DNA of 64,000 nt from Escherichia coli. GTDB lineage: Bacteria > Pseudomonadota > Gammaproteobacteria > Enterobacterales > Enterobacteriaceae. The stretch lies in the NCBI GenBank assembly GCA_902499925.1, contig GCA_902499925.1_4130.1. One strand, written 5' to 3'. Numbering within the stretch: position 1 is the stretch's first letter; every line of letters starts with the position of its first letter. The position numbers and the translations under genes were made by a program. Shown one piece after another: positions 9,222 through 61,621 of this stretch. Below the pieces are notes generated by a model. The model searched no databases. It was not told the origin of the DNA and saw only the letters and a program-made list of their open reading frames with translations.

Positions 9222-9223
9222 TG

Positions 9224-11775: not shown

Positions 11776-11807
11776 TAAAAGAAAAAGGGACCAATATATG
11801 ATCCCTT
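11776..11807 (-). terminator. rho-independent terminator
   Basis: AGGGAUC-AUAUAUU-GGUCCCU then UUUUCUUUU, after the stop of the pseT-like gene. Confidence 0.65.
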
Positions 11808-11812
11808 TTGTA

Positions 11813-12745: not shown

Positions 12746-12748
12746 ACT

Positions 12749-13274: not shown

Positions 13275-13283
13275 ATGAACTCC

Positions 13284-13541: not shown

Positions 13542-13567
13542 TTCTCCTTGTGCTAGGCTAGATAGTA

Positions 13568-14710: not shown

Positions 14711-14970
14711 TTTATTACCTCTATATCTACATCTGTGCCATAGTAGGAAACGTAACCATTATCTGAATTACATTGAATTGATAACTCTGATTCATAGTAT
14801 GTTACTTTGAACACTGTTAGAACTTTTTCATCAATTTTTCCCGTTAAATAATCCATTTCACGAACACGAACTTTGGTTCCTTTTGGGAGTTCTTGTGCAA
14901 TTTTATTAACAAGTTCAAAAGCAGCTTCTTCAAGTGTGTGCAACAATTGCAATCTATCTTGGATATTCAT
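14707..14970 (-). CDS. small helix+beta protein
   Basis: Track 14707..15015; ATG 14970 lies just after the upstream stop with GGTGGA upstream; LPKGTKVRVREMDY. Confidence 0.5.
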   Translation of the reverse strand: MNIQDRLQLLHTLEEAAFELVNKIAQELPKGTKVRVREMDYLTGKIDEKVLTVFKVTYYESELSIQCNSDNGYVSYYGTDVDIEVIK

Positions 14971-14971
14971 A

Positions 14972-15661
14972 TTATTTCCACCAAGTTGTATCACGACCAC
15001 CAGACAAAGATTCATTGTACTGATGTCTGAAATTAGTATTTGGATTATTTGTCATTGTACTAATAAAATCAAATTTAACATTCTCTTGAATGTAATTAAT
15101 AACATTATCTTTAAATTTAATAGTACTGAAGTCTAAATCTAAATGTTCATACAATACAGGATGACAAAACTCATGTGTACGCAATGATGGCATGGTATCC
15201 TTAATGTATTGCACAGTGTTAATCATTGCATTGTACTCAGGCATAGCACGCATCATCATTAGCTGAAAGTGTTCTTCCTCTGACATTGACTCATCCAAAT
15301 CAATAACTACTTCATCATTTTTAGAGTCATATACTTTAATGGAACTCTTTGTTGGATCAAGCATAGCCCACTCTGGATACAGGCATGTTTTCCAAAAAGG
15401 ATTATTGCACTGAAACATACTAATGAGATTTTGATTTTTATCAAAAATAGCAAATCCAAGATCCGAACTTGGCTGTACTTCACATACACAAATATCATAA
15501 GGGGAGTCTTCAGTACTGAATGAACCAACTACATTTGATATATGTGAATATGGAGTTTCTCTTGATTTTAATTCAAAGGCTCTCTCCATACGATTAACCT
15601 GTGGTTGTAATGTAATTACACCCCTCAGTACATATAAAATTCTATCTAAATCTTTAATCAA
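14972..15661 (-). CDS. hypothetical protein
   Basis: 229-aa ORF. Confidence 0.65.
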   Translation of the reverse strand: MIKDLDRILYVLRGVITLQPQVNRMERAFELKSRETPYSHISNVVGSFSTEDSPYDICVCEVQPSSDLGFAIFDKNQNLISMFQCNNPFWKTCLYPEWAMLDPTKSSIKVYDSKNDEVVIDLDESMSEEEHFQLMMMRAMPEYNAMINTVQYIKDTMPSLRTHEFCHPVLYEHLDLDFSTIKFKDNVINYIQENVKFDFISTMTNNPNTNFRHQYNESLSGGRDTTWWK

Positions 15662-16236
15662 AATTCTATCCTCGTATCGGTTAATTTCGTTCCGTCCATG
15701 TACTTAACAGTTATTTCAATGCGACGATCAGTACTCAATTTTTGAAGATCATTGTAGTACAATTTAAATTCTTCAAAGAACTCAAGTGGGGGAATATCGT
15801 ATAAAGTACCAATCTGGAAGTGCTCAGGTAATCCAAATTCCAATATATCAATCTTAGGCATAAGTCCATCTGCTGCTGCACCTTCTGGAGTACTGCTGTC
15901 TGCTATATAAAACATAGAATTACCATGACGCTGGATAACGAATATGCAATCATCTTCACTTACATAAATCATATTTCCAAGGTATGGATCGTTATCACAC
16001 AAATTATCATGGACGAGTTGTTGAACTTGAAGTAAATCTTTTATAATTCCCTGACCACTATCGTCAACTAGAATATGTAAACCAGAACAATCTTTGCTCA
16101 ACCAGCGGTATCTTGCATCACATCCTGATTCCATAAATGGATATTTTGAAAAATCCATATCAGTACCATTATAAAACCAATCGTACCACTCATTACGCAT
16201 AGTAATCAGCTTAGTACATAATTCTAATACATTCAT
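15658..16236 (-). CDS. hypothetical protein
   Basis: 192-aa ORF, ATGA overlap. Confidence 0.65.
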   Translation of the reverse strand: MNVLELCTKLITMRNEWYDWFYNGTDMDFSKYPFMESGCDARYRWLSKDCSGLHILVDDSGQGIIKDLLQVQQLVHDNLCDNDPYLGNMIYVSEDDCIFVIQRHGNSMFYIADSSTPEGAAADGLMPKIDILEFGLPEHFQIGTLYDIPPLEFFEEFKLYYNDLQKLSTDRRIEITVKYMDGTKLTDTRIEF

Positions 16237-16243
16237 TTTAGTT

Positions 16244-16546
16244 TTATCCTCTTAGTTTAATAATACTGGCTGGATAATCTACCATAGTACTATCTGGTAA
16301 TCCTATACAGTAATAAGGAAAATATCCCATCTTTATATTAATACCAATTAACATTCCAGTTTTATATGAAGTATTAATTTCATAGTGGTCGTCTATATCA
16401 ACCGCCAGTCCATATAAGGATATGTTACAATCCTTGATGTATCGTTCAAAGATTTTATACATTGATGGGTATAAAGTTCCATTGGATTCTCTTACTATAT
16501 CAGCCAACAACTTTATAGTACTGTTAATTAAATCTATACTAATCAT
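16244..16546 (-). CDS. hypothetical small protein
   Basis: 100-aa ORF starting just after terminator 16560-16584. Confidence 0.55.
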   Translation of the reverse strand: MISIDLINSTIKLLADIVRESNGTLYPSMYKIFERYIKDCNISLYGLAVDIDDHYEINTSYKTGMLIGINIKMGYFPYYCIGLPDSTMVDYPASIIKLRG

Positions 16547-16559
16547 CTTTGTACCTGCG

Positions 16560-16584
16560 AAAAAAGACCAGCAAACGCTGGCCT
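16560..16584 (-). terminator. rho-independent terminator
   Basis: GGCCAGC-GUUU-GCUGGUC then UUUUUU, after 16591..16872. Confidence 0.8.
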
Positions 16585-16590
16585 TAACAT

Positions 16591-16872
16591 TTAAATTATT
16601 TCATACAGACAATATACACCATCAACGCCATCACAAGGAAAATCAACATAGAAATTCACACTAACAGTATCATAATCAATCTCAGTGATGCGTCCGGTTT
16701 TACCTACACTCTTCACGAATAGGTCAGAGCCAAGATATACAAACTCAAACTCATCTGCATACTCTTTTATAATATCAGCAAAATCACAACCATATCTGGG
16801 ATCAGTATTAATAATCTCAAGATATAATGTAATGTATTGTTCGTATGACCATGTGTGTAGGTAAAAATCCAT
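16591..16872 (-). CDS. hypothetical small protein
   Basis: 93-aa ORF followed by a strong terminator. Confidence 0.55.
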   Translation of the reverse strand: MDFYLHTWSYEQYITLYLEIINTDPRYGCDFADIIKEYADEFEFVYLGSDLFVKSVGKTGRITEIDYDTVSVNFYVDFPCDGVDGVYCLYEII

Positions 16873-16881
16873 AACAGTTCC

Positions 16882-17619
16882 TTAGAAATATACCATACCC
16901 ATCAATTCTGAATCTTCAGGGCGAGTATAGCCTTGTTTCTTAACTTTAAAGTAGAAGGATTCATTGTCTTCTAAATTATAACGTTTCTTCAAGCAACGGG
17001 TATATGTCTGGCAATTAGGATGAACCCATTCATATATATGAACACCATCTTCATTATAACCATTTATACTACAACGGTTGCCTTCATGTTTCTTGTAGTT
17101 CTTGCTTTTCTCGGTAAATTCTTTTACAGCAGTAGTACTTGGTGATTTATATTCAAAAGGAACTTCAGTCATACGGAAATAATAATATTGATCGTCTTCA
17201 TCATATCCCAAGAGCACTGTGTTAGTTTCACGTACATTGTAATGATTCTTACTTTTCAATTCATTTTCATATATATCTTGAAGTACTTCTTCAAATACTG
17301 TAGTACTGTCAGCATTTGGGTTGGATACACCTGATACTCTTCGTTCAATAATAAAATCAGTATATTTGCGGTCTTCTGCAATGTCTTCATTCATATAAAG
17401 ACTAACGAACTTATCCTTGTACGTCTTTACACTGTATTGTTTACTTTGAACTTCGCTATATACATCTGCTAACATATTCTCCTGACCGCACTGCACACCA
17501 CTTACAGAATAAGCACATGCATGTTCAGCCATCACTGATGTTAACATTTGAAAATTTGCCATGTTTAATTCATTCGCCATCTCTGTAGCGAAACGGATAC
17601 GGTCAAGCACTTTCCACAC
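16882..17619 (-). CDS. hypothetical protein
   Basis: 245 aa; track start is a GTG 1 nt after AAGGAG; in-frame GTG at 17610 has better spacing, so the start is uncertain. Confidence 0.6.
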   Translation of the reverse strand: MWKVLDRIRFATEMANELNMANFQMLTSVMAEHACAYSVSGVQCGQENMLADVYSEVQSKQYSVKTYKDKFVSLYMNEDIAEDRKYTDFIIERRVSGVSNPNADSTTVFEEVLQDIYENELKSKNHYNVRETNTVLLGYDEDDQYYYFRMTEVPFEYKSPSTTAVKEFTEKSKNYKKHEGNRCSINGYNEDGVHIYEWVHPNCQTYTRCLKKRYNLEDNESFYFKVKKQGYTRPEDSELMGMVYF

Positions 17620-17650
17620 TCCTTGTGTTAGTTATTGTTCCTTATCCATT

Positions 17651-17678
17651 ATTATATCACTACTTGAGCTATCGTCCC
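17651..17678 (-). promoter_or_regulatory. possible promoter (GGGACG-16-TGaTATAAT)
   Basis: GTGATATAAT box in the 17620-17668 intergenic region; weak -35. Confidence 0.3.
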
Positions 17679-17953
17679 GCTTTGTAACAATAAAGATTCT
17701 CAAATTTAAAGTTCTCTATATCACATTCCTCACGAACTCGGTTCTTGTTCCAGAACAGAATACGAATCCTTTCATAATCACGATAAACACTAATAATACT
17801 TCTGTGTTTAGATTTGTAGTACTGCTGTATAACCTGAAGAGTTATATCCCTCAGCTTGGACTTAATTGGGTAAGACATATCATTACTAGTTGTTATGGTA
17901 TAAACCATCTTCATTGTTTCAGCAACAAGTACTTCATTCGATTTATTTGCCAT
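17669..17953 (-). CDS. hypothetical protein
   Basis: Track 17669..17971; ATG 17953 has AAGGA 5 nt upstream. Confidence 0.5.
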   Translation of the reverse strand: MANKSNEVLVAETMKMVYTITTSNDMSYPIKSKLRDITLQVIQQYYKSKHRSIISVYRDYERIRILFWNKNRVREECDIENFKFENLYCYKAGR

Positions 17954-18116
17954 TAAAATCCTTACAAACACTATGTAAAGTAAATCCTAAACCTACACCT
18001 ACGAATGGGAATAGTAAATTAATGTACCAGACATTCATTGTCGATAAGAAACAAATCCCACTTACGGTTAGTACTGCCAGTGAGAAAAGACTCCAGATAA
18101 AAAATAATGCTCTCAT
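17943..18116 (-). CDS. small membrane protein (57 aa, below track cutoff)
   Basis: ATGA overlap with upstream stop; MRALFFIWSLFSLAVLTVSGICFL...LLFPFVGVGLGFTL gives two hydrophobic helices. Confidence 0.45.
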   Translation of the reverse strand: MRALFFIWSLFSLAVLTVSGICFLSTMNVWYINLLFPFVGVGLGFTLHSVCKDFNGK

Positions 18117-18403
18117 AAAAATGTTACCTCGTTAGATGAGTAGTTACGATATATTTGTGAATTATGTTCCACACCATGAATTGTTATATGCCCGTTGTAG
18201 AAAAAAGTAACATCTACTACTTTTAGTTCTTTGCGTTTTTTAGTACTGAAATATCTACCAACTAACGCAGCATATATATAATCCCTGTACTCTTGAGTAA
18301 TGAATTTATACATATTATGATTTGCACTACACTTTTCATCATAAGTATTAGTATATTCTTTCATCAGTAGAGCATATGTTTTTTGTATTAATATGATATT
18401 CAT
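18113..18403 (-). CDS. hypothetical small protein
   Basis: 96-aa ORF. Confidence 0.55.
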   Translation of the reverse strand: MNIILIQKTYALLMKEYTNTYDEKCSANHNMYKFITQEYRDYIYAALVGRYFSTKKRKELKVVDVTFFYNGHITIHGVEHNSQIYRNYSSNEVTFL

Positions 18404-18663
18404 CTGTAGTTTAATATTGAAATGGGAAGACTATATATATGTGCGTAAAGTTTATCAACTCTTTCCATATTCACTTTTAAAGTACTTCCATAACGACTAA
18501 TGCTATCTATACGATAAAGCACGTCATTCAGCATCATTACGGTATCGGTGTAATCTTCACTAAGAGATTCAATGTAGATATCTTCAAGTTTCACATCCAT
18601 GCGTGGTATATCTAAATCCCTCAATAAACGCAGTGTTTGCACGATCAGTTCAGCTTTAGTCAT
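18400..18663 (-). CDS. hypothetical small protein
   Basis: Track 18400..18786 overlaps the zinc-ribbon gene by 131 nt; ATG 18663 (MTKAELIV...) reduces the overlap to 8 nt. Confidence 0.45.
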   Translation of the reverse strand: MTKAELIVQTLRLLRDLDIPRMDVKLEDIYIESLSEDYTDTVMMLNDVLYRIDSISRYGSTLKVNMERVDKLYAHIYSLPISILNYR

Positions 18664-18856
18664 GAATACGCTCACATGCCAGACAATAAATGCACTCAAT
18701 GTCAGGTCGCCATGATTTATCGAAATCTTTGTGCTGTTCTTCAGTGTATTCCGCATCATCATTGATAGGAAAGAAATCCCCAGCACCAGAGGCCCAGTCT
18801 GAATCTAAACGGAAACGAGCTAATTGAGTACTGTTGCAATATGGACATTTATTCAA
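18656..18856 (-). CDS. small zinc-ribbon protein
   Basis: 66 aa with CPYC...CIYCLAC cysteine pairs. Confidence 0.55.
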   Translation of the reverse strand: MNKCPYCNSTQLARFRLDSDWASGAGDFFPINDDAEYTEEQHKDFDKSWRPDIECIYCLACERIHD

Positions 18857-19133
18857 AATTTATTCCTTCTAACTGATATACGTTTAATGAAAATGACCCA
18901 CTATTATTATCGCATCTGAAACACAGTGTTAAAGAACCATTAAAACTAACAACATCAGTACATATACATTTTTCACCATTGGATATGATAGATTTTCCTA
19001 TATATAAATCTCTTACTATAGTACGGTAATGTTGCCATAAAAAATAATACACACTTTCATAGTACTCATCTTTTACATATGACAAGTATAAGAATTTATA
19101 AAATACTTGTATTTCCTTTAAGTTGTTTTTCAT
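18849..19133 (-). CDS. QFTYK-family small paralog
   Basis: 94 aa; N-terminus LKEIQVFYKFLYLSY. Confidence 0.6.
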   Translation of the reverse strand: MKNNLKEIQVFYKFLYLSYVKDEYYESVYYFLWQHYRTIVRDLYIGKSIISNGEKCICTDVVSFNGSLTLCFRCDNNSGSFSLNVYQLEGINFE

Positions 19134-19407
19134 TCTCCAACTCCAGTAAATTTACACCAATCCAATCAACATCACTATCAGTACTTAATTCCAATCGTAG
19201 CTTACCGCTATGACTAACAATATCGCGGAATTTGTATATTTTATTATCACGAACTATACACAAATCATGGTAATATTCATGTAATTCATCCAAAAACTTT
19301 ATCCATACCGAACGATAGATTTCACCGTAGAGATATTCTCCAGCATCAACCGTAGCGTATTGGATATACAAAAATTTGTATGTGAATTGTATATCATTAA
19401 TATTCAT
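19096..19407 (-). CDS. QFTYK-family small paralog
   Basis: 103 aa; MNINDIQFTYKFLYIQY. Confidence 0.65.
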   Translation of the reverse strand: MNINDIQFTYKFLYIQYATVDAGEYLYGEIYRSVWIKFLDELHEYYHDLCIVRDNKIYKFRDIVSHSGKLRLELSTDSDVDWIGVNLLELENEKQLKGNTSIL

Positions 19408-19417
19408 ATGTCAACTC

Positions 19418-19729
19418 TTATAGGTCCGTTAACTTCATAACTTTAATCTCCATAAATTCCCTATCAGTTTTTTCAAGAAATTCTACATGGATAATACCTT
19501 GATAAGATTTTACACCTGAATATTCAAATATGTCATCTCCATCAGTGTAAGTACTGTAATTCTTTTTTATATATTCAGCAATAGAATCTAAGTAATCATA
19601 GTAATTATTAATAAATGGTGATTCTTTTGATTCGACATGTTCACCAATCTTCCCACTAAAAAGATACATGTCATACAAACCATATATATTTTTATACGTG
19701 AATTGAACATCATTCAAATTTAATTTCAA
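19418..19729 (-). CDS. QFTYK-family small paralog
   Basis: 103 aa; MKLNLNDVQFTYKNIYGLY. Confidence 0.65.
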   Translation of the reverse strand: MKLNLNDVQFTYKNIYGLYDMYLFSGKIGEHVESKESPFINNYYDYLDSIAEYIKKNYSTYTDGDDIFEYSGVKSYQGIIHVEFLEKTDREFMEIKVMKLTDL

Positions 19730-19986
19730 GGGAATATCTCCAGAGGAACACTCGTAAATCCAAAATCAGTGAAGAACTGTACCTCGACTTTACCATCGAG
19801 CTTAATGATTATATCTGAAAATTCTGCATGATCGTTGTTAATAATTACAGTACTGAATTTTTCTTTAATCCTCTCACGCACAATATTAATCATTTCAATA
19901 CATGTATCTTCTAAAAACACACTATTATTTTTATTTGCTAGGTCACGAATGCACTTGAATGTTAATTGGAAATCTTTATAATTCAT
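19726..19986 (-). CDS. QFTYK-family small paralog
   Basis: 86 aa; MNYKDFQLTFKCIRDL. Confidence 0.6.
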   Translation of the reverse strand: MNYKDFQLTFKCIRDLANKNNSVFLEDTCIEMINIVRERIKEKFSTVIINNDHAEFSDIIIKLDGKVEVQFFTDFGFTSVPLEIFP

Positions 19987-20252
19987 ATATTCACCAAATC
20001 AACAGAGAATAAGTCGTTATCAAATTTATATGAAAGTACTAATCTACCACCAAAACTATCGACTCTAAGTATCTTTCGTTTTTTCCCATTAATGAAAATT
20101 TCAGTATTAATAAAATACTCACGTAATTCTTCTAGGTAATTTGACCATAATTTATGAGTAAACGCATTTTTATTAATTGTGTTAGTACTTCTGTGATTAT
20201 GGTGTAATTTAAATAATTCCATATAAGTGAATTGTATATGTTTGTAATTCAT
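19983..20252 (-). CDS. QFTYK-family small paralog
   Basis: 89 aa; MNYKHIQFTYMELFKLH; followed by terminator 20263-20292. Confidence 0.65.
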   Translation of the reverse strand: MNYKHIQFTYMELFKLHHNHRSTNTINKNAFTHKLWSNYLEELREYFINTEIFINGKKRKILRVDSFGGRLVLSYKFDNDLFSVDLVNI

Positions 20253-20262
20253 ATTTCCCCTT

Positions 20263-20292
20263 ACAAAAATAGCCCGAACTTATGTCGGGCTA
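20263..20292 (-). terminator. rho-independent terminator
   Basis: UAGCCCGA-CAUAAGU-UCGGGCUA then UUUUUG, after 20299..20913. Confidence 0.8.
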
Positions 20293-20298
20293 TATGTA

Positions 20299-20913
20299 TT
20301 ATTCATCGTCATCATCGTCGTCGAGATCTAGGTAAATGTCAGCATCACCATCATCAAAGTACTCAACAACTACACCAGGAATGTTCAGTGCTGTAAACAT
20401 CGCATCATATTTTTCATCAGATGGGATAAGAACAAACTCATCAATGCTTTGAATTTCAGGCATACGATCTTCAGGAATACCCATTTGCAACAAGGATTGG
20501 ATGATTTTTTCCTTGTATTCTTGGAACTTCTCTTCTGATTCGAAATCCATAATAAGTTGTGCTACATAACCATCTTCGTTACCAAATGCGATTGACATTT
20601 GTGCATCAGTACCGACATATGACCATGTACGCTTGCCAGTATTTTTCTCAATGAAGTTCTGAATTTCAAGAACGATTTCATGACGAGAACTATTGGCAAT
20701 GTTGTTAAGGTTAGCAACACCAGCAATAATTTCTGAACTATCATTGGATTCTTCGAATGTACCATAGTCACCTAATACATATTGAACACCATCACAATGT
20801 AATGCATATGCATAATCCAAATCAGCAAGTGAATCACACTTACCACGGATTGGGCGTAGGGAAAGCCCTAGGCGAAGATAACGAAAGTATGTATTAGTAT
20901 TTGTATTTGTCAA
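20299..20913 (-). CDS. hypothetical protein with poly-Asp C-terminus
   Basis: Track start 20958 is TTG; in-frame TTG at 20913 has AAGGAG (20921-20926) 7 nt upstream; the next in-frame ATG is about 100 codons further; C-terminus DLDDDDDDE. Confidence 0.55.
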   Translation of the reverse strand: MTNTNTNTYFRYLRLGLSLRPIRGKCDSLADLDYAYALHCDGVQYVLGDYGTFEESNDSSEIIAGVANLNNIANSSRHEIVLEIQNFIEKNTGKRTWSYVGTDAQMSIAFGNEDGYVAQLIMDFESEEKFQEYKEKIIQSLLQMGIPEDRMPEIQSIDEFVLIPSDEKYDAMFTALNIPGVVVEYFDDGDADIYLDLDDDDDDE

Positions 20914-21181
20914 CGTAATGCTCCTTAACAATATAAAAGTAGTTGCTGTTGTTGTCAAAAAAGATGACTAATCCTTTGTAGACATTTACACCAATCTTGA
21001 TTTGGCATATTTTATTCGATTTACAAGCCTCAGTCAATAACATCTTGTGCTCTTTACTGAAAGTGTGGAATAGTGGTTTTACATGCCACATCTCCACACC
21101 ATCTAGTACTGGAAAATGTTCACTGAATTTGATCATTGATTCTTGTAAAAAATAACCTGTTAGATTCGAATCATCAGACAT
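20894..21181 (-). CDS. hypothetical protein
   Basis: Track start 21202 is TTG; ATG at 21181 preferred; 95 aa. Confidence 0.5.
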   Translation of the reverse strand: MSDDSNLTGYFLQESMIKFSEHFPVLDGVEMWHVKPLFHTFSKEHKMLLTEACKSNKICQIKIGVNVYKGLVIFFDNNSNYFYIVKEHYVDKYKY

Positions 21182-21467
21182 GTAAGTTCGCCAGGAAGTC
21201 AATTACTTCGTCATGTGTTAACTTATCACTACGCTCTAGAACATTGATGATGAATGGTGTTTGACTATATAATTCAGCCAGAAAAGCAACTTCATCAGAT
21301 GTATAAGAATATCCCATAGGAACAACTTGTGCAGTCCAGTTTCCTAAAGTTTTGTTTGCAATGATTGCAACCACCGTATTACCTTTGAATTCAACATGGA
21401 TTGAACGGAAACCCGAATCCTCATTCTGATCCCAAAGTACTGGGTTAGTTTTAAACAGTACTGACAT
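21174..21467 (-). CDS. hypothetical protein
   Basis: 97-aa ORF. Confidence 0.55.
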   Translation of the reverse strand: MSVLFKTNPVLWDQNEDSGFRSIHVEFKGNTVVAIIANKTLGNWTAQVVPMGYSYTSDEVAFLAELYSQTPFIINVLERSDKLTHDEVIDFLANLHV

Positions 21468-21469
21468 AG

Positions 21470-22003
21470 TTATTTCCTCATGTATTTTATTACATCTTCA
21501 AATAGTTTAGTTTTCAGTGCATCATCATTACCAGGTAGAAAAGTACTGAAGCTATTAAAATCTTCATTCTTGGCAAACTCACGCATCTGTGTGGAACTGT
21601 AGCGACTTACATTTCGGTCAATTCCAGCTTGAACTGCCTTGATTGAACAAAAATTATATAACTTCCCATTGTACGTGTCAAGTGTTTTTTGGAATGGTTC
21701 AAGTCTGTCTGAACCACATATGAAAAGAACATCTAAGTACTTTCCATCCAGTTCTCTCATTATATCAAACAGATTATCTTCTGTATAGATATTTTCTTGT
21801 ACAGATGGGTAAAATCCTTCTGTATAGTACATTTTCAGTTCAGGAGGTAATGGGTTTTTGACGGCATCAGTACTGGTACTAAGGAATATTTTCAAATCAG
21901 CATTGTACTGTTCTTGTAGTGCTTGAGCTTTTTCAAACACTAAACCATGACCTCGATGTACAGGGTTAATTCTTCCGAATGTCACTACGCATGTTTCTTT
22001 CAT
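21470..22003 (-). CDS. cytidylyltransferase-superfamily nucleotidyltransferase (NMN adenylyltransferase-like)
   Basis: 177 aa; N-terminal FGRINPVHRGH ((H/T)xGH motif) and C-terminal SSTQMR (ISSTxxR-type motif). Confidence 0.7.
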   Translation of the reverse strand: MKETCVVTFGRINPVHRGHGLVFEKAQALQEQYNADLKIFLSTSTDAVKNPLPPELKMYYTEGFYPSVQENIYTEDNLFDIMRELDGKYLDVLFICGSDRLEPFQKTLDTYNGKLYNFCSIKAVQAGIDRNVSRYSSTQMREFAKNEDFNSFSTFLPGNDDALKTKLFEDVIKYMRK

Positions 22004-54990: not shown

Positions 54991-55356
54991 CTAGTATTGC
55001 ACTGTTCTAATGAAAGTACCTGAACTCATGGATTTAAGCTTATGAACCTCTTCCTGTATACCCTTGAGCAACTCTAAAGGCATTGGTACATCATGTACTA
55101 AGCTGTACTGAAAGTATTCTTCTTCAGATAAAGTACTAACATCTGGGACGCCAATTTTAGTTAGATAATCTTGATGTGTTGACCAATAAATTATATCTTC
55201 AGTACAATTGTACTCCCCATATACTGAACAATATTGATGAATATCTTTCCTGTACCCTTGAGCAATAAAGAACTTATCTACGGCATTAATAGAACTCACT
55301 TCGATTGTTACAGTACTTGAGCTTGTTTTTCCTTTATTATGCATATTAATCCCCAA
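54991..55356 (-). CDS. FQ-motif paralog (short form)
   Basis: 121 aa; SEEEYFQYSLVH. Confidence 0.75.
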   Translation of the reverse strand: MGINMHNKGKTSSSTVTIEVSSINAVDKFFIAQGYRKDIHQYCSVYGEYNCTEDIIYWSTHQDYLTKIGVPDVSTLSEEEYFQYSLVHDVPMPLELLKGIQEEVHKLKSMSSGTFIRTVQY

Positions 55357-55532
55357 ATTAGATATCGAACACTATCAGCTTGATAGTTAGTTCCTACTGT
55401 GTGTTTTAATATTAACTCATCTTTCAGTACTGAACATTCTGCATTAGATATAGGAAGTGAATTAATTCTTTGAATTTCTGGTCGCAACATACCGCGAATC
55501 TTGCGATAATCTTCGTATGATAATCTTTTCAT
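55308..55532 (-). CDS. GTNYQ-family small paralog
   Basis: 74 aa; HTVGTNYQADSV. Confidence 0.65.
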   Translation of the reverse strand: MKRLSYEDYRKIRGMLRPEIQRINSLPISNAECSVLKDELILKHTVGTNYQADSVRYLIWGLICIIKEKQAQVL

Positions 55533-55535
55533 GGT

Positions 55536-55880
55536 TTAATACTCAATAATGTGTTCTTCATAATCACCATTAGGCTCCTGTTTAGCTTCTTTCATTAGTA
55601 CTATCATCTTATGTACTAATGGCATAGGAAACTCTAAATCCCATACTAATGATTCCTGAAAGTATTCCTCTGGTGATAAAGTACTTAAATCTTTAATATC
55701 AACGTGCTTGTATATTTTATTTTCGTAATTAACAAATGATATATATAAATCATTAATATAAGAATCATACGTAATTGTGAATGGCTTACCCTTGTAGTCC
55801 ATTACATCTCTACATAGACTACTTTTGATATATATATGTTCATAGGATTTATATACCTTGAGTTGTATATTAGTTTTCAT
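55536..55880 (-). CDS. FQ-motif paralog (short form)
   Basis: 114 aa; SPEEYFQESLVW. Confidence 0.75.
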   Translation of the reverse strand: MKTNIQLKVYKSYEHIYIKSSLCRDVMDYKGKPFTITYDSYINDLYISFVNYENKIYKHVDIKDLSTLSPEEYFQESLVWDLEFPMPLVHKMIVLMKEAKQEPNGDYEEHIIEY

Positions 55881-56112
55881 ATTTCTCTTTATTAGCTTGT
55901 TTGGTTTTATAGTGAATTAAATCTATTAATGTAATCAAGTACAACTTCAAAAAGTACTCTTGATGGTTCGTACCTAATGATACAAAGAACTTATGCTCAT
56001 AAATCAAAACCTGTTTCACTTCAAAGGGACACTTAATCCTCTGTATAGGTTTAAGTAAATGATAGTACTTATTAAATCTATGATACATTTCTAGTTCTGT
56101 CAGTACTTTCAT
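55870..56112 (-). CDS. GTNYQ-family small paralog
   Basis: Track start 56121 is TTG; ATG 56112 follows the upstream stop; VSLGTNHQEYFL. Confidence 0.65.
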   Translation of the reverse strand: MKVLTELEMYHRFNKYYHLLKPIQRIKCPFEVKQVLIYEHKFFVSLGTNHQEYFLKLYLITLIDLIHYKTKQANKEKYEN

Positions 56113-56113
56113 A

Positions 56114-56335
56114 TTAAACAATCACTCCATTAGCTGTAGCATCACGTAAAGCTCTCAAATACTTCTGTACTGCTTGCTCTTGCTTATTTGTACCTAAAAG
56201 TATATACATCCATAATTCACTGTAATGTACATCTTGTGTATAAGGGTTGTTGTAACTTTTTGATAATATAGCATCAAATTCAGATGCATGAACCCTTGTG
56301 AACTTAAGAATATCTTGTTGTGTTATGATTCTCAT
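56114..56335 (-). CDS. GTNYQ-family small paralog
   Basis: 73 aa; ILLGTNKQEQAV. Confidence 0.7.
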   Translation of the reverse strand: MRIITQQDILKFTRVHASEFDAILSKSYNNPYTQDVHYSELWMYILLGTNKQEQAVQKYLRALRDATANGVIV

Positions 56336-56547
56336 ATCTTTTCCTGTACTATCTGTATAAGAATCCCTATGTGTGAATTAACAGTTCTCTCTTGATGCTG
56401 TGTTCCTAAGAGTGTCAGTACTATCATCTCTGAACGCAAAAGATTTTTCTGAAGTTCACTTATATCAGTCCTCATATCAAGATTCAGAAATTCTTGACTA
56501 TTTTTTCTGAATAGTGCCAAGTACTCTTGATTTGATATTTCCTTCAT
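56332..56547 (-). CDS. GTNYQ-family small paralog
   Basis: 71 aa; TLLGTQHQERTV. Confidence 0.7.
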   Translation of the reverse strand: MKEISNQEYLALFRKNSQEFLNLDMRTDISELQKNLLRSEMIVLTLLGTQHQERTVNSHIGILIQIVQEKI

Positions 56548-56774
56548 AGTTTATCCCTGATGCCATTTAAAAGTGCTCTAATATGCTCCTGTACGAATTT
56601 GTACTGACTGTCTGTTCCTAGAGTGAGTAGCAATCTTAAATCTGAACTTTTGATGTGATATTCTAAATCATTATTTGATTCTTGCATCAGTTTCTTAAAG
56701 GATGAGAAGTTTGCAGCCATTAGTTCAATGTATTCTGCTGTTCCTAGTGGTTTGTGTATTGGCTGTTTGTGCAT
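56544..56774 (-). CDS. GTNYQ-family small paralog
   Basis: 76 aa; LTLGTDSQYKFV. Confidence 0.7.
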   Translation of the reverse strand: MHKQPIHKPLGTAEYIELMAANFSSFKKLMQESNNDLEYHIKSSDLRLLLTLGTDSQYKFVQEHIRALLNGIRDKL

Positions 56775-56986
56775 TTTAATTTTATTACCCTTTTGAGTGT
56801 ATTAATGTAATTATACACATTGGCTTCTTGATAGTTAGTTCCCAGTGTAGCTTGAACATAGATTTCATTTAACTTAATAATTTTATCAGTATCTGGTAGT
56901 TTTGATGTGTTAATGGCAAATAACTTCAAAAACAGTCCATTTAAGATTGTTAGGTATTCTTCGTCGGTAATGATTCGCATTTGCAT
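56744..56986 (-). CDS. GTNYQ-family small paralog
   Basis: 80 aa; ATLGTNYQEANV. Confidence 0.7.
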   Translation of the reverse strand: MQMRIITDEEYLTILNGLFLKLFAINTSKLPDTDKIIKLNEIYVQATLGTNYQEANVYNYINTLKRVIKLKCTNSQYTNH

Positions 56987-57192
56987 TGGATAAACCTTTT
57001 TAGTTCTTTGATGTAATCATTAATATTGCATTCTTGATAGTTAGTCCCTAGGGTAGCTTGAACATAGATTTCACTCATTAGAATATTTTTTTCTTCATCA
57101 GGTAAATCTGTGGTCTTTGCTATATACAATTTTAGAATTAAACTACTTAATAGTTCGTGGTATTCACTTGGTGAAAGGATTTTCATTTGCAT
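56950..57192 (-). CDS. GTNYQ-family small paralog
   Basis: 80 aa; ATLGTNYQECNI; close paralog of 56744..56986. Confidence 0.7.
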   Translation of the reverse strand: MQMKILSPSEYHELLSSLILKLYIAKTTDLPDEEKNILMSEIYVQATLGTNYQECNINDYIKELKRFIQCKCESLPTKNT

Positions 57193-57398
57193 GTTCTCAG
57201 TACAGATTCTTTAAGTTCATCGATGTAGTCCTCAACGAATTGCTCTTGGAAGTTAGTTCCAATATATAAAAGAACTCTTAAATCTGCTCTAAGTAACTCT
57301 TTTTCATCATCATCTATATCAGACAATGTTATGTTTAAGAATTTACTTGTATTAAAGATTAACAATTCTGTTTGTTCACTGTGGCTTAAAATTTTCAT
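57183..57398 (-). CDS. GTNYQ-family small paralog
   Basis: 71 aa; LYIGTNFQEQFV. Confidence 0.7.
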   Translation of the reverse strand: MKILSHSEQTELLIFNTSKFLNITLSDIDDDEKELLRADLRVLLYIGTNFQEQFVEDYIDELKESVLRTCK

Positions 57399-57606
57399 AA
57401 TCTCTTTTTGCTTTCCTCGACAGTAGGTACAAATACGATTCTTCGTATTGTGCTTGGAAGTTTGTGTTTAAGAGTCGAAACAACTTCTGTTCTTCTAGAA
57501 CGAGTTGCTTATCTTCATAACAACGGTAGCGTATCAACTTTTTGTATTCGATGTTGATTACATCCATTACTATAAGCCCATGTTCATCATCTGTCAAGTG
57601 CTTCAT
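57376..57606 (-). CDS. GTNYQ-family small paralog
   Basis: 76 aa; RLLNTNFQAQYE. Confidence 0.65.
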   Translation of the reverse strand: MKHLTDDEHGLIVMDVINIEYKKLIRYRCYEDKQLVLEEQKLFRLLNTNFQAQYEESYLYLLSRKAKRDYENFKPQ

Positions 57607-57845
57607 GCTTTTTTTCTTTTCCTGATGTGTTTAGTTAAAAGGTATATTAGTTTTCTGATGTATTCTTCCTGATAGTTTGTTCCTAATAGTGCAAGAAGTT
57701 TTGCTTCAACTAAAGCTAATTGACGTTCTTCAAATGTGTGTTCCAGTATGTACTTTGGGTTTGATTTTTTAGAAATTGCACTATTAGTTTTCATTACAAT
57801 CTTATGATATTCATTAACTGTTAGGATTTTTAAATTCTTGAGCAT
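57603..57845 (-). CDS. GTNYQ-family small paralog
   Basis: 80 aa; ALLGTNYQEEYI. Confidence 0.7.
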   Translation of the reverse strand: MLKNLKILTVNEYHKIVMKTNSAISKKSNPKYILEHTFEERQLALVEAKLLALLGTNYQEEYIRKLIYLLTKHIRKRKKA

Positions 57846-58071
57846 GTACCTTTTCCTTTATAGAGAATTTAAGATATCGAAGCATACTTTCAATGTAATA
57901 CTCTTGTCTGTCAGTTCCAAGAAAGTACAGGAGTTGAATGTATAAAACTTCTGCACTCCTTTCGGCATGTGACTTGTTTGTGTCGTTTGGAAGTTGATTT
58001 GTAAGTTTTCTGGATTTAATTAATCGTTCTTTTAACTCATCGTCTGTTAAGTATTTCATTTGCATTTGCAT
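57814..58071 (-). CDS. GTNYQ-family small paralog
   Basis: 85 aa; YFLGTDRQEYYI. Confidence 0.7.
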   Translation of the reverse strand: MQMQMKYLTDDELKERLIKSRKLTNQLPNDTNKSHAERSAEVLYIQLLYFLGTDRQEYYIESMLRYLKFSIKEKVHAQEFKNPNS

Positions 58072-58297
58072 TTACTTTTTCCTTAATAGTGATTTTAAGA
58101 TATCTAATCATACGTGCAACATATTCCTCTTGTCTATCAGTTCCCAGAAGATATGGTAGTGATTGGAATAATACTTCTGCACTCCTTTCTGCTGGGGTTT
58201 GGTTTAGGTCAATTGGACGTTTATTGGTATATCTCTTGGCACGAACTAATCTCTCGACGTATTCATTATAGGTTAAGTATATCATTTCATTTTGCAT
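58037..58297 (-). CDS. GTNYQ-family small paralog
   Basis: 86 aa; YLLGTDRQEEYV. Confidence 0.7.
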   Translation of the reverse strand: MQNEMIYLTYNEYVERLVRAKRYTNKRPIDLNQTPAERSAEVLFQSLPYLLGTDRQEEYVARMIRYLKITIKEKVNANANEILNRR

Positions 58298-58533
58298 TTA
58301 ATGTTTCTTACGTAAATTGTCTGGATTAAACAATCAATCCAAGTTTGAATATATTGGTTTTGATACTGTGTGCCTAAGAGACTCTGCATTTTAAACTCTG
58401 CTTCAAGTTCATATCTCTTTTCTATAGAAAAGCTCAAATGACCATATTCTTTATCGTATCTTCTCAGTGCTTCCCCAATTCTATCAAATCTTTCTGCTAA
58501 TCTGATGTTATTCACAATATTCATCGCATTCAT
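58282..58533 (-). CDS. GTNYQ-family small paralog
   Basis: 83 aa; SLLGTQYQNQYI. Confidence 0.7.
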   Translation of the reverse strand: MNAMNIVNNIRLAERFDRIGEALRRYDKEYGHLSFSIEKRYELEAEFKMQSLLGTQYQNQYIQTWIDCLIQTIYVRNIKCKMK

Positions 58534-58787
58534 CGATCAGTACACCTCAGTGGTTGGGTCATTTGATGAAAGTACAGCTTACCTCTGATTTCCAGTAGTA
58601 ACTCCGCGATTAAGCGATTTACTTCTGTATCTTGATAGTTTGTTCCTAAGAATACACCCATCTTTAACTCACGCATCATAATCATTTTCTTACTGTGTTG
58701 AATTTCTGGGTTGTGATAGATTGTATTACGTTTGTGCGTAATTTTTGTCATACGCTCGGTATATTCATCTTTACTTAAATTAATCAT
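58530..58787 (-). CDS. GTNYQ-family small paralog
   Basis: Track 58530..58808; ATG 58787 (MINLSKDEY) matches sibling N-termini; VFLGTNYQDTEV. Confidence 0.7.
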   Translation of the reverse strand: MINLSKDEYTERMTKITHKRNTIYHNPEIQHSKKMIMMRELKMGVFLGTNYQDTEVNRLIAELLLEIRGKLYFHQMTQPLRCTDR

Positions 58788-59019
58788 TTTTATTCTCCAA
58801 AGCATCACATTTATTTTCGATACAAATCATTAGTTCTCTAAGATAGTTTTTTATCTTACCTTCCTGATGGTTCGTCCCCAGGAAGTTGCATAACTCTGCT
58901 TCTATTATTTTGATTCTTCTGGTGTCAGGTTTCAATTTTTTGTTATTGAAGATTTGAATCCTTATATCCCTTGATGCATTTAAACGTTTTTGATATTCAT
59001 GGAAAGATAAATTAATCAT
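58780..59019 (-). CDS. GTNYQ-family small paralog
   Basis: 79 aa; MINLSFHEY; NFLGTNHQEGKI. Confidence 0.7.
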   Translation of the reverse strand: MINLSFHEYQKRLNASRDIRIQIFNNKKLKPDTRRIKIIEAELCNFLGTNHQEGKIKNYLRELMICIENKCDALENKND

Positions 59020-59234
59020 TTACTTTGTATCTCTCTCTTGAGGGCATCAATTAACAACAGTACAGCATTCTCTTGATAGTTTGTTCCTAAGACTGAAAGC
59101 ATCTTAATCTCATTTACTACAATCAACTTCTTTGAGCGTTCAATAATGTTACTATTATAAACGGCGTTACGTGCTGGATAAGTTTTTGCAAGACGAACAT
59201 AATATTCATCTTTACTTAAATTAATCATTTGCAT
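59016..59234 (-). CDS. GTNYQ-family small paralog
   Basis: 72 aa (alternative ATG 59228 gives MINLSKDEY); SVLGTNYQENAV. Confidence 0.7.
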   Translation of the reverse strand: MQMINLSKDEYYVRLAKTYPARNAVYNSNIIERSKKLIVVNEIKMLSVLGTNYQENAVLLLIDALKREIQSK

Positions 59235-59443
59235 TTACTTTGGATCTCCTTGACTAATGCATCAACCCACATGTCTATATACATTTGTTGATAGTTTGTC
59301 CCTATGAGTGCCCCTGCATAGAGTTCAGCTACCATTGCATGTTTTAGGTTGGCAGGGATGCTCTTATCAGATTGAATCTTTACTCTTCTGTTGGCACATG
59401 TTTTCAGAAGCTTAACATATTCGTAACCTATTAATTTTCTCAT
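59225..59443 (-). CDS. GTNYQ-family small paralog
   Basis: 72 aa; ALIGTNYQQMYI. Confidence 0.7.
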   Translation of the reverse strand: MRKLIGYEYVKLLKTCANRRVKIQSDKSIPANLKHAMVAELYAGALIGTNYQQMYIDMWVDALVKEIQSKCK

Positions 59444-59655
59444 TCTTTTGATATCACCTTGTTACGTAAGGCACTTAACAATACGTCAGTGTAGATGTTT
59501 TGATAGTTTGTTCCTACGAATACACCCAACTTCATTTCAGCTATTATAACACATTTGTCCTCTTGTGCAATAGACTTGTCTAAAGAAATACTAACAACTT
59601 TCCTTCTTATAGCTTGTAACCTCCAATGATACTGATACTCATTTAGGGTTATCAT
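59440..59655 (-). CDS. GTNYQ-family small paralog
   Basis: 71 aa; VFVGTNYQNIYT. Confidence 0.7.
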   Translation of the reverse strand: MITLNEYQYHWRLQAIRRKVVSISLDKSIAQEDKCVIIAEMKLGVFVGTNYQNIYTDVLLSALRNKVISKE

Positions 59656-59890
59656 TCTCTCGCCTCCATTTCTCGGTTCTAATGTGTTGACATTGTGCTT
59701 CGATGAACATATCTATTGATTTGGCAATTGCTTTTTTATCTGTGCCTGTCATCAGTACAAGCATCTCGGCCTCACAGTGAAGTAAACGCATGATATCATA
59801 GGGTAATATTCCAGATACCGTGTCATAGTGTTTCTGTGCCAGTGTCTGTAATAGTTTACAATACATTTTGTGATTTAGTCTGTGTCGCAT
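59639..59890 (-). CDS. GTNYQ-family small paralog (divergent core)
   Basis: 83 aa; LMTGTDKKAIAK at the core position. Confidence 0.55.
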   Translation of the reverse strand: MRHRLNHKMYCKLLQTLAQKHYDTVSGILPYDIMRLLHCEAEMLVLMTGTDKKAIAKSIDMFIEAQCQHIRTEKWRRENDNPK

Positions 59891-60147
59891 TGTTTATTCC
59901 ATTCTTTTTTGGCCTTGATGGTTTTATATTGGATTTGGTTTCTTAATGCTGATAAGTATCGTTGAATGAACAGATCTTGATAGTTTGTTCCAATGAATTT
60001 CATCAGATAAAGTTCACCGTTGATAACATCCACTTCAGGTGCACCATATAAGGCATTGTTTTTTCTAAGGGTATGGATTAAAGAGAATAGGGCAGTTTGA
60101 TACTCAACTCCTGATAAAGTCTTCATGTTTTGTGAGCCAATAATCAT
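59875..60147 (-). CDS. GTNYQ-family small paralog
   Basis: 90 aa (alternative ATG 60126 gives MKTLSGVEY); KFIGTNYQDLFI. Confidence 0.7.
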   Translation of the reverse strand: MIIGSQNMKTLSGVEYQTALFSLIHTLRKNNALYGAPEVDVINGELYLMKFIGTNYQDLFIQRYLSALRNQIQYKTIKAKKEWNKQCDTD

Positions 60148-60361
60148 CTAGTTTATCCTGTATAACATTCATTAATTGTTCGACATATTCTGTGCAAAAC
60201 TTATCTTGATATTGAGTCCCCATAAAGTACAACAACCATAGCTCATTAACTTTAGCTCGCATTTGGTTCCATGTAAGGCTGGGGTCATCGTAGACTATCC
60301 TTGCTATAGGGGTTAGTTTACGGACTATAGTTTCATATTCATCTAGTGTTAAGTGTTTCAT
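60104..60361 (-). CDS. GTNYQ-family small paralog
   Basis: 85 aa; YFMGTQYQDKFC. Confidence 0.7.
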   Translation of the reverse strand: MKHLTLDEYETIVRKLTPIARIVYDDPSLTWNQMRAKVNELWLLYFMGTQYQDKFCTEYVEQLMNVIQDKLDDYWLTKHEDFIRS

Positions 60362-60576
60362 TTACATTTGTCCCTTATTAGATCAGTGAGGGCAACTATG
60401 TGTGCAACAACATACTCTTCCTGAAAGTTCGTCCCCAGTACAGCCATCATGCGTATATCGGTGGTGTTTATCCTGTGTTCCCTTACACATAAACCTTCTG
60501 TGTGAGGAAGTGTAAAATATTTGTTTATTGCAGCAACGATAATTTTATTCTTCTCGGAGTTACTTAAATGTTTCAT
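60358..60576 (-). CDS. GTNYQ-family small paralog
   Basis: 72 aa; AVLGTNFQEEYV. Confidence 0.7.
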   Translation of the reverse strand: MKHLSNSEKNKIIVAAINKYFTLPHTEGLCVREHRINTTDIRMMAVLGTNFQEEYVVAHIVALTDLIRDKCK

Positions 60577-60785
60577 AGTTTGCTCTTAATGTATTTCTGG
60601 AGTGCAATTATATACTCATTCAAGAAATGCTCCTGATAGTCTGTGCCGAGGAATGCACCCAATAGTATATCATTTTCCAATACTAATGCTAAGTTTAAAT
60701 CATCAGTCTCTTCATATACTATGAGAATTTCAAGTTGTCTGGCAGCGACGCGTTCGGTATATAGATTTGAGTTAATGCTATTCAT
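60573..60785 (-). CDS. GTNYQ-family small paralog
   Basis: 70 aa; AFLGTDYQEHFL. Confidence 0.7.
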   Translation of the reverse strand: MNSINSNLYTERVAARQLEILIVYEETDDLNLALVLENDILLGAFLGTDYQEHFLNEYIIALQKYIKSKL

Positions 60786-60994
60786 AGTTTACTCTTAATG
60801 TAATTCTGGAGTGCAATTAAGTATTCCCCTACATAATACACCTGAAAGTCTGTATCCAAAAATGCACCCATAAGTAAATCTTTTTCTAATACCCTTGATA
60901 AGTTAAGGTCTGCATTTGAAAGGTATATAAGTAAGATTTCACCCTGTGCGGAATTGAAACGTTTCTTATATTCTTCTGGTGTTAAAAAAATCAT
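60782..60994 (-). CDS. GTNYQ-family small paralog
   Basis: 70 aa; AFLDTDFQVYYV; close paralog of 60573..60785. Confidence 0.7.
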   Translation of the reverse strand: MIFLTPEEYKKRFNSAQGEILLIYLSNADLNLSRVLEKDLLMGAFLDTDFQVYYVGEYLIALQNYIKSKL

Positions 60995-61200
60995 AGTTTC
61001 CTCTTAATATCTTCTATTAAAAATCGAATCCAATCGTCAACATACTCTTCCTGATGGTTTGTGTTCAGTACAGCCAACATGCGGATCTCTGCTCTTGCAA
61101 CTTCAATTGCAGTTTTAGGAAGGTCTTTTCTGATATCCAACATTAAGTCCATGTATCTCAAGATAAGACCGTATGATTGGGTTCGTGTTATAGTTTTCAT
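60991..61200 (-). CDS. GTNYQ-family small paralog
   Basis: 69 aa; AVLNTNHQEEYV. Confidence 0.7.
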   Translation of the reverse strand: MKTITRTQSYGLILRYMDLMLDIRKDLPKTAIEVARAEIRMLAVLNTNHQEEYVDDWIRFLIEDIKRKL

Positions 61201-61397
61201 TGTTTCCTCGTGGATAATATTTCATTTTTCAATGCATCCATATATTGAATCACCCATCTTCCCTGATAGCTTGTTCCCAATGTAATCAAAAGGTATAACT
61301 CAATTCGTTCTAAGTTTGTGTCTGTGTTATAAATCTTTACCATGTTTTTACGTAACAGTTCTTGATAATCTTCTTTATTTAAAATACGCATTTTCAT
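61197..61397 (-). CDS. GTNYQ-family small paralog
   Basis: 66 aa; ITLGTSYQGRWV. Confidence 0.65.
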   Translation of the reverse strand: MKMRILNKEDYQELLRKNMVKIYNTDTNLERIELYLLITLGTSYQGRWVIQYMDALKNEILSTRKQ

Positions 61398-61591
61398 AGT
61401 CTACCTTTTATGTCCCTTCGTAATTCTTGTAAGTATAGTTCGATATACTTTTCTTGATAGTTAGTTCCTATGAAAAGTTTCATAACCAATTCACGCTTAT
61501 ATGCAATACCACGGATATGTGACATATGTAGGATATATGCCATGTTGGATATGAGTGTGTGGTTGTGCTCTTCTTGAGTTAAAATACGCAT
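61394..61591 (-). CDS. GTNYQ-family small paralog (first gene of the array)
   Basis: Track 61394..61621; ATG 61591 (MRILTQEEH) has GGAG upstream and lies downstream of promoter 61622-61649; LFIGTNYQEKYI. Confidence 0.7.
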   Translation of the reverse strand: MRILTQEEHNHTLISNMAYILHMSHIRGIAYKRELVMKLFIGTNYQEKYIELYLQELRRDIKGRL

Positions 61592-61621
61592 AGGGACTCC
61601 ATTAAAAATAATATCAATCAT

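Follow-up and report, generated by a model that had tools for sequence, protein, structure and literature searches.

A tandem array of diverged small genes with a predicted three-helix fold at the terminal-repeat junction of Asteriusvirus jumbo phages

Why would a bacteriophage carry some 30 versions of one small protein side by side? The question is raised by a contig from an Escherichia coli assembly (GenBank assembly GCA_902499925.1, contig GCA_902499925.1_4130.1), of which we analysed a stretch of 64,000 nucleotides, referred to here as the window. Every substantial open reading frame (ORF) of the window lies on the minus strand, and positions 55308-61621 hold a dense array of small genes sharing a G-T-N-Y-Q motif (the GTNYQ family), next to a second gene family (the FQ family). 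The window is the left-end region of an E. coli jumbo phage of the genus Asteriusvirus (PBECO4/121Q-like), with a nucleotide identity of 96% to Escherichia phages CMSTMSU and WPEC5 and 88% to PBECO4. Over the array region alone the identity was 95-96% to CMSTMSU, WPEC5 and Ecwhy_1, and 86-91% to PBECO4, phAPEC6, SP27 and G17, all of them jumbo myoviruses of approximately 350 kb from the same genus. Two orphan gene families thus occupy about 55 kb at the left end of such 350-kb coliphage genomes, and in the window they comprise at least 68 genes (30 GTNYQ and at least 38 FQ).

A profile hidden Markov model (HMM) built from the 30-sequence alignment and used in a six-frame scan of the window recovered exactly 30 GTNYQ members (E values from 1e-14 to 1e-27), with no further match at E < 0.01. 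The G, T and Q of the motif and one Leu further downstream, in helix 3 of the models described below, were conserved in at least 90% of the sequences, and the pattern in the 30 members is beyond the reach of chance. A first-pass annotation, made from the sequence alone, had described 27 consecutive genes of 66-92 aa and three divergent copies elsewhere in the window. All the ORFs it listed exist on the minus strand, and the HMM confirmed the three outliers (at 40828, 40997 and 53752; E values from 1e-14 to 1e-17). The run itself consists of 26 contiguous members (55870-61591) and a 27th (55308-55532) that stands behind one FQ gene (55536-55880), and HMM-guided start choice gave lengths of 63-91 aa. 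The genes are listed below; each GTNYQ member was identified with the HMM.

61394-61591, minus strand: member 1 (65 aa), start moved inward from 61621, behind a GGAG ribosome-binding site, modelled with AlphaFold2
61197-61397, minus strand: member 2 (66 aa), E = 1e-17, ATGA overlap
60991-61200, minus strand: member 3 (69 aa), N-T-N-H-Q variant
60782-60994, minus strand: member 4 (70 aa), D-T-D-F-Q variant
60573-60785, minus strand: member 5 (70 aa), nearest paralogue member 4 (51% identity)
60358-60576, minus strand: member 6 (72 aa)
60104-60361, minus strand: member 7 (85 aa)
59875-60126, minus strand: member 8 (83 aa from ATG 60126; 90 aa from 60147)
59639-59890, minus strand: member 9 (83 aa), most divergent core (T-G-T-D-K-K)
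59440-59655, minus strand: member 10 (71 aa)
59225-59443, minus strand: member 11 (72 aa)
59016-59234, minus strand: member 12 (72 aa), also with a PHROG match
58780-59019, minus strand: member 13 (79 aa), also with a PHROG match
58530-58805, minus strand: member 14 (91 aa if begun at ATG 58805; an N-terminus of the family type, MINLSKDEY, starts at 58787)
58282-58524, minus strand: member 15 (80 aa)
58037-58297, minus strand: member 16 (86 aa)
57814-58065, minus strand: member 17 (83 aa), nearest paralogue member 16 (58% identity)
57603-57845, minus strand: member 18 (80 aa), most basic (net charge +10)
57376-57606, minus strand: member 19 (76 aa), N-T-N-F-Q, with an internal σ70-like site (11/12) at 57597-57569
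57183-57398, minus strand: member 20 (71 aa), acidic (net charge -7), modelled with AlphaFold2
56950-57192, minus strand: member 21 (80 aa)
56744-56986, minus strand: member 22 (80 aa), nearest paralogue member 21 (51% identity)
56544-56774, minus strand: member 23 (76 aa)
56332-56547, minus strand: member 24 (71 aa)
56114-56335, minus strand: member 25 (73 aa)
55870-56112, minus strand: member 26 (80 aa from ATG 56112), ends the contiguous block, 11-nt overlap with the downstream FQ gene
55536-55880, minus strand: FQ-family gene (114 aa) between members 26 and 27, not GTNYQ; FQ HMM E = 1.5e-17, phrog_13866
55308-55532, minus strand: member 27 (74 aa), running into the FQ gene that follows (54991-55356)
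53752-54003, minus strand: outlier member 28 (83 aa), G-S-K-E-Q, E = 7e-14
40997-41215, minus strand: outlier member 29 (72 aa), G-S-N-K-Q, E = 2e-17
40828-41019, minus strand: outlier member 30 (63 aa), G-T-Q-Y-Q, E = 1.5e-17, overlaps an FQ gene (40284-40880)

The contiguous block is tightly packed. Its 25 junctions comprise 12 ATGA overlaps of 4 nt, 11 overlaps of 10-37 nt and two gaps (1 and 5 nt), and no spacer exceeds 5 nt. The start of gene 1 had been placed at 61621. Since that ATG abuts the -10 hexamer (61627-61622) of a σ70-like promoter, the start is most likely the ATG at 61591, 30 nt further in, which has a GGAG 7 nt upstream. The resulting gene (198 nt) carries the same annotation in phages fEgEco12, vB_Ec-M-J and phAPEC6. 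DNA repeats inside the array are merely the imprint of the conserved G-T-N-Y-Q codons. A break in composition was confined to the array (56-60 kb), where the plus strand had an AT skew of approximately -0.20 to -0.22 and a GC skew of -0.005 to -0.09; in most other bins the AT skew was approximately -0.01 to -0.07 (-0.11 in one bin) and the GC skew approximately -0.05 to -0.25.

The array members are real genes, and each paralogue is under purifying selection. Ratios of non-synonymous to synonymous substitution rates (dN/dS, ω) were calculated with the Nei-Gojobori method on HMM-guided ortholog pairs between the window and five relatives and pooled. The pooled values were 0.32-0.38 (for phAPEC6, for instance, dN was 0.075 and dS 0.218). 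When alignment columns were split by their variability among the 30 paralogues, ω was 0.17 in the conserved core and 0.46 in the most paralogue-variable columns. Because even the latter remain constrained, each copy conserves its own variable surface, a pattern that specialised paralogues fit better than drifting duplicates. For members 2, 3, 14 and 25 a few pairwise comparisons gave pN ≥ pS (ω of approximately 1 or more), resting on one or two synonymous changes and not significant. The HMM and dN/dS results bear out the original view of a paralogous family of small protein-coding phage genes. We ruled out that the array represents broken fragments of one large repetitive gene, since each unit has its own start and stop, both kept in relatives, a recognisable ribosome-binding site precedes most of them and ω stays below 1.

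Paralogues shared on average 24% identity (range 11-56%). Adjacent copies were more alike than non-adjacent ones (0.298 vs 0.242), a difference reached in none of 5000 permutations of the gene order, and the closest pairs (4/5, 16/17 and 21/22) had a dS of approximately 1. The copies therefore arose by tandem duplications long ago, and the family is a clean case of an ancient, stably kept tandem expansion in a phage. Seven relatives that were scanned had 24-29 array copies in syntenic order, with insertions and losses: fEgEco12 and EC.P1 carried two extra copies with only 39-46% identity to any window member, and SD-1_S14 lacked members 21-23. Identity at syntenic positions was patchy, from 45 to 100%. 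Member 16, for example, was 100% identical to its PBECO4 copy and 73% identical to that of fEgEco12, although fEgEco12 is the closer genome overall. Such patchiness at equivalent positions indicates that cassettes have been exchanged between related phages. A 58-aa protein (P0173) resembled member 17 with the variable middle removed in frame, and SD-1_S14 contained a truncated or internally deleted copy (locus L008, 2510-2611); judged from these sequences, individual copies can evidently decay or be remodelled.

Structure prediction offered an explanation for what the members share. AlphaFold2 models were obtained for member 1, with the 30 paralogues as the alignment (predicted local distance difference test, pLDDT, 94.6; predicted template modelling score, pTM, 0.77), and for the acidic member 20, with 60 sequences (pLDDT 96.1, pTM 0.80), which has 31% identity to member 1. 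In both models a short N-terminal strand led into helix 1 (approximately 20 residues, with a kink in member 20). After a loop came helix 2, which spanned 11-16 residues, then a turn of five residues and finally helix 3, again approximately 20 residues long. The family fold is thus predicted to be a short N-terminal strand plus a three-helix bundle, in line with the small helical bundle anticipated by the first-pass annotation. The turn between helices 2 and 3 is G-T-N-[YF]-Q, and in both models DSSP assigned a β-bridge from the N-terminal M-K-x-L segment to the Thr of the turn. Judging from the models, the Gly would end helix 2, T-x-x-Q would form the N-capping box of helix 3 and L-[ST]-x-x-E-Y the capping box of helix 1, so that the β-bridge would join the two conserved motifs. 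Conservation further extended to heptad hydrophobics (V/I, Y, I/L, L, I), to a single Glu within helix 2 and to a single Lys close to the C-terminus.

Since the turn and the N-terminal motif look like bridged helix caps, both are likely to be determinants of the fold and not an active or functional site. The L-G-T-N-Y-Q-E core noted originally thus stands as a conserved feature and is best read as an inter-helix corner. All family-wide conservation could be explained by the predicted fold. Exposed columns, by comparison, had entropies above 3 bits (core and cap columns: below 2 bits). Net charge ranged from -7 to +10 and the isoelectric point (pI) from 4.4 to 10, with a pI of at least 8.0 in 20 of the 30 members. 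The grand average of hydropathy (GRAVY) of these soluble proteins of approximately 70 residues was negative for all members except two, which did not exceed 0.1, and no membrane or periplasmic signals were detected in the members. A defined scaffold with a variable surface makes the family experimentally tractable.

Comparison with databases showed that the GTNYQ family corresponds to PHROG 4148, its one catalogued match, annotated as of 'unknown function'. All ten members tested matched this profile over its full length (positions 1-72 of 74; E values from 1e-11 to 1e-22), as did RaK2-type and metagenomic relatives, with weaker matches to PHROG 28039. The entry gives no function, structure or context, and the array, its genomic position and the fold are not recorded there. 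Searches of all 30 members against Pfam, NCBIfam and PADLOC returned isolated single-member hits only (E of 0.0016 or weaker, mostly above 0.01), with no family recurring; for the defence-system components in PADLOC there were only four single-member hits, likewise at 0.0016 or weaker. A profile search of all PDB sequences had a best E value of 0.32, Foldseek gave no PDB hit at E ≤ 0.001, and in BFVD it found only the family's own members (from Asteriusvirus phages 121Q, UB and slurp01). The family had been called unrecognised at the outset, and these profile and fold searches yielded no known domain for it. No description of the GTNYQ family, its array or the FQ family was found in the literature searched on Asteriusvirus and RaK2 phages; the RaK2 paper states only that about 10% of gene products are paralogues (PMC3622015). 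The phAPEC6 orthologues, gp467c-gp489c, are absent from the table of 62 virion proteins identified by mass spectrometry in that phage (PMC7247149), a method by which small proteins are easily missed, and we infer from this absence that the GTNYQ proteins are non-structural.

Several candidate relationships were rejected. The N-terminal pattern L-[ST]-x-x-[DE]-Y-x-x-R-L, which we took to be shared with the Hha/YmoA/Cnu proteins, pointed to a group of similar size that is also all-helical and has a similar N-terminal helix-cap motif; hhalign gave a probability of 2.6% over the first 18 residues only, without a Pfam HHA hit. Reading helix-G-T-x-x-Q-helix as a helix-turn-helix found no structural or profile match to such domains. 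Homology between the GTNYQ and FQ families was likewise dismissed (hhalign probability 0.1% over six columns, [YF]-Q-E-x-x-V), and their two HMMs shared no hits. Two proteins carry an N-terminal GTNYQ domain with a C-terminal extension, namely P0208 of Escherichia phage UB (269 aa, extension of approximately 200 residues) and P0190 of the RaK2 gp173 type (121 aa, approximately 55 residues); as neither extension had a Pfam or PHROG match, the fusions gave no hint of function.

The position of the array in the genome is defined by the direct terminal repeats (DTRs). Those of fEgEco12, 20,993 bp long, have been confirmed experimentally (PMC13070987), and its first array gene starts at 21,091; in vB_Ec-M-J the DTR is annotated at 1..21525 and the first array gene starts at 21,624. 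The distance from the DTR end to the first array ATG is therefore 98-99 nt in both. Across this junction the window is 98% identical to fEgEco12, which places the end of the left DTR at approximately 61689/61690. The two features at the junction are as follows.

61690-64000, minus strand: left DTR end region, with small genes that have their own strong σ70-like promoters (63471, 12/12; 63024, 11/12)
61622-61649, minus strand: σ70-like promoter TTGACT-16 nt-TATTAT (10/12), within the first 70 nt of unique sequence

The array thus holds the first unique genes after the left DTR. Its σ70-like promoter (61649-61622) has -35 and -10 hexamers identical to those in fEgEco12, with one spacer base different. 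That the array begins at a module boundary with a promoter had been proposed before, and the boundary can now be named as the junction of left DTR and unique sequence. Over the whole window, σ70-like sites matching at least 11 of 12 positions numbered 22 on the coding strand and one on the other, and those matching at least 10 of 12 numbered 64 and 14. Four perfect TTGACA-N16-18-TATAAT sites occurred in the window on the minus strand, and strong sites were found at 63471, 53542, 38460 and 21681, among others. This distribution suggests that the whole 64 kb may be read by the host RNA polymerase. In the distantly related phage PA5oct, the genes of the DTR are strongly transcribed at an early stage and the phage is dependent on the RNA polymerase of its host (PMC7318152). 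Given the σ70-like promoters, the strand bias and the behaviour of PA5oct, the array is probably also transcribed early by the host enzyme. An inverted repeat (AATCCCTT...AAGGGATT, 16-nt loop, no T-run) lies within 61700-61800 on the minus strand, between the last DTR gene and the DTR/unique junction, and might act as a terminator, in packaging or otherwise.

How widely is this arrangement shared? An HMMER scan of 1.84 billion cluster representatives returned only 96 GTNYQ clusters at E ≤ 1e-3, and all of these were 52-96 residues long except the 121-aa RaK2-type protein and the 269-aa fusion of phage UB. Named sources were Escherichia and Salmonella Asteriusviruses and Klebsiella phages RaK2, K64-1, Muenster and phiKp_21. 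Occurrence of the family was confined to Asteriusvirus, Alcyoneusvirus (RaK2, Muenster) and a single metagenomic lineage, in each case beside the FQ family at the DTR junction. In RaK2 and Muenster the approximately 12 members stand singly or in groups of up to six that interleave with FQ genes, and in Muenster GTNYQ members occupy the first two ORF positions behind the repeat predicted by PhageTerm (1..20030). A metagenomic contig of 101 kb (L009), with almost no nucleotide similarity to any isolate, has 12 near-contiguous members (one FQ gene interposed) and five more, followed by FQ genes. The best matches between lineages were about equal to those within lineages (0.33 each), so much of the diversification predates the split of the lineages.

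The FQ family comprised at least 38 members by iterated HMM search (27323-55880, minus strand), with the motif ...LS-EEE-[YFL]-F-Q-E-S-L-V... in which F-Q is invariant. It had no Pfam match, is spread over PHROGs 13866, 9317, 12674, 19795 and others of unknown function, and also occurs in RaK2, Muenster and contig L009. In the more distantly related Klebsiella phage fENko-Kae01, whose DTR has been determined (19,736 bp), FQ genes set in 86 nt past the repeat and number at least 19, but a scan of 49 kb gave no GTNYQ member at E ≤ 0.1. Of the two families, FQ is thus the more widely distributed. The GTNYQ family is an addition lying between the DTR and the FQ genes in three lineages, and in Asteriusvirus it has expanded and become segregated.

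Taken together, these results led us to hypothesize that the array supplies diversified small proteins, binders or inhibitors, as an early and non-structural repertoire, a reading that we favour tentatively and put somewhat short of an even chance. The block would form one polycistronic, translationally coupled unit, transcribed early by the host RNA polymerase from σ70-type promoters. The N-terminal M-K-x-L-[ST]-x-x-E-Y segment, the L-G-T-N-Y-Q-E turn and the heptad hydrophobics of helix 3 would build and close the scaffold, and function would lie with those exposed residues of helix 1, helix 2 and the loop between them that differ from one paralogue to the next. Each protein might be aimed at a different host protein, or at a different variant of one; the targets may be defence systems or points of host takeover, met by deployment at the very start of infection. 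If the three-helix proteins are target-specific inhibitors, the array would amount to a library of about 30 natural binders against E. coli proteins, and would also give a handle on the broad host range of jumbo phages, with relevance for phage-therapy candidates in Asteriusvirus.

Three results weigh against this repertoire hypothesis. Across Asteriusvirus the array has kept most of its order, and even the variable sites have an ω below 1, which looks like a set of stable specialised paralogues, not a fast arms race. No similarity to known anti-defence or takeover proteins emerged from the PDB sequence and fold searches, which include many of them. At a threshold of 9/12, promoter-like sites were not enriched (39 found vs 40.1 expected from shuffles).

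A more far-reaching version holds that the GTNYQ and FQ arrays jointly serve RaK2-like jumbo phages as a dedicated first wave of counter-defence and host-range functions, fixed at the DTR junction. Each three-helix protein of approximately 70 residues would inhibit its own target in host immunity or takeover by means of an inhibitor scaffold not described before, and the whole would be the phage counterpart of the terminal multigene families of African swine fever virus (ASFV) and poxviruses. We consider this possible but doubtful.

The ASFV multigene families MGF110/360/505 and the poxvirus host-range families are diverged tandem paralogues beside terminal repeats, variable in copy number, non-structural and expressed early. 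By analogy, these families of large eukaryotic DNA viruses may be the closest parallel in layout; they have no sequence or structural relationship to the GTNYQ proteins, and a role against host immunity has been demonstrated for them whereas it is only hypothesised here. Gene 0.3 (Ocr) of phage T7 and the pre-early genes in the terminal repeat of phage T5 also encode small non-structural proteins at a genome end under σ70 promoters of the host RNA polymerase. Unlike the array, these are single genes with known targets, they are not homologous to it, and the charge pattern of an Ocr-type DNA mimic is not common to a family with such a range of pI. Among jumbo phages, Bacillus phage G has a zinc-ribbon expansion of approximately 35 copies, proposed to be transcription factors and termed 'unprecedented' (Iyer et al. 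2021, PMC7824862); the text of the same review names 121Q only for its hair-like fibres. That expansion resembles the GTNYQ and FQ families in scale, with dozens of small paralogues of guessed function in one jumbo phage. The GTNYQ proteins differ in their fold, the lack of zinc ligands, the phage lineage and the contiguous, overlapping layout at the DTR junction. Small accessory genes that have multiplied within one lineage near the end of a viral genome are of a known kind; what is new here is the scaffold, the copy number and the fixed position.

Other explanations were considered as well. The GTNYQ proteins could be partner subunits (adaptor, chaperone or antidote-like) of the FQ proteins in one two-component early system. 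The two families are always neighbours, as had been noted for the window and was seen again in RaK2, Muenster (order GGFFGFFFFFFGGFGGGGGGFFG...) and contig L009, where they interleave; members 26, 27 and 30 are each followed immediately by an FQ gene that they overlap, where an FQ-family or unknown gene had been recorded at first for the members at 55308 and 55870 (FQ genes 54991-55356 and 55536-55880). Member 29 precedes member 30, and member 28 precedes a gene outside the FQ family. The proposed check of co-occurrence upheld the neighbourhood in three lineages and weakened an obligate pairing, given the FQ genes of fENko-Kae01 without GTNYQ in the 49 kb scanned and the unmatched copy numbers (30 vs at least 38). 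As 25 members have no FQ gene between them and the two profiles are not homologous, we regard a partnership as unlikely. Small nucleic-acid-binding proteins (transcription factors, nucleoid-associated or RNA-binding regulators) would suit the small, helical and mostly basic members, and jumbo phages are known to carry putative transcription factors expanded within one lineage, with the zinc ribbons of phage G as the parallel (PMC7824862); acidic members also exist and no DNA-binding fold was found, which makes such a role quite unlikely for the family.

Everything that suggests a repertoire against the host (early position, diversified paralogues, cassette exchange) would equally suit weapons or shields in competition between phages, through superinfection exclusion or by interfering with phages that infect the same cell. 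Known exclusion proteins are in many cases associated with membranes, and the lack of membrane or periplasmic signals and the hydrophilic composition of nearly all members leave this explanation with a small share of the probability. Tandem arrays often serve gene dosage, and copies have been lost, truncated or added between relatives, as would also be expected of near-neutral selfish duplicates. However, paralogues as diverged as these, with a dS of approximately 1 even in the closest pairs, are not dosage copies. Selection acts on every site class (ω of 0.17-0.46), and the same position has been kept in three lineages with almost no shared nucleotide similarity; amplification of one function, or neutral duplication, is accordingly highly improbable.

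No transfer RNA or Rfam family was found anywhere in the window. In relatives, the DTR-type region upstream of the arrays encodes a ParE-like toxin-domain gene in the metagenomic lineage (L009, 3046-3297) and a putative protein kinase in Muenster, fENko-Kae01 and fEgEco12 (L012, 326-910; L013, 1234-1824; fEgEco12 record, 16745-21681).

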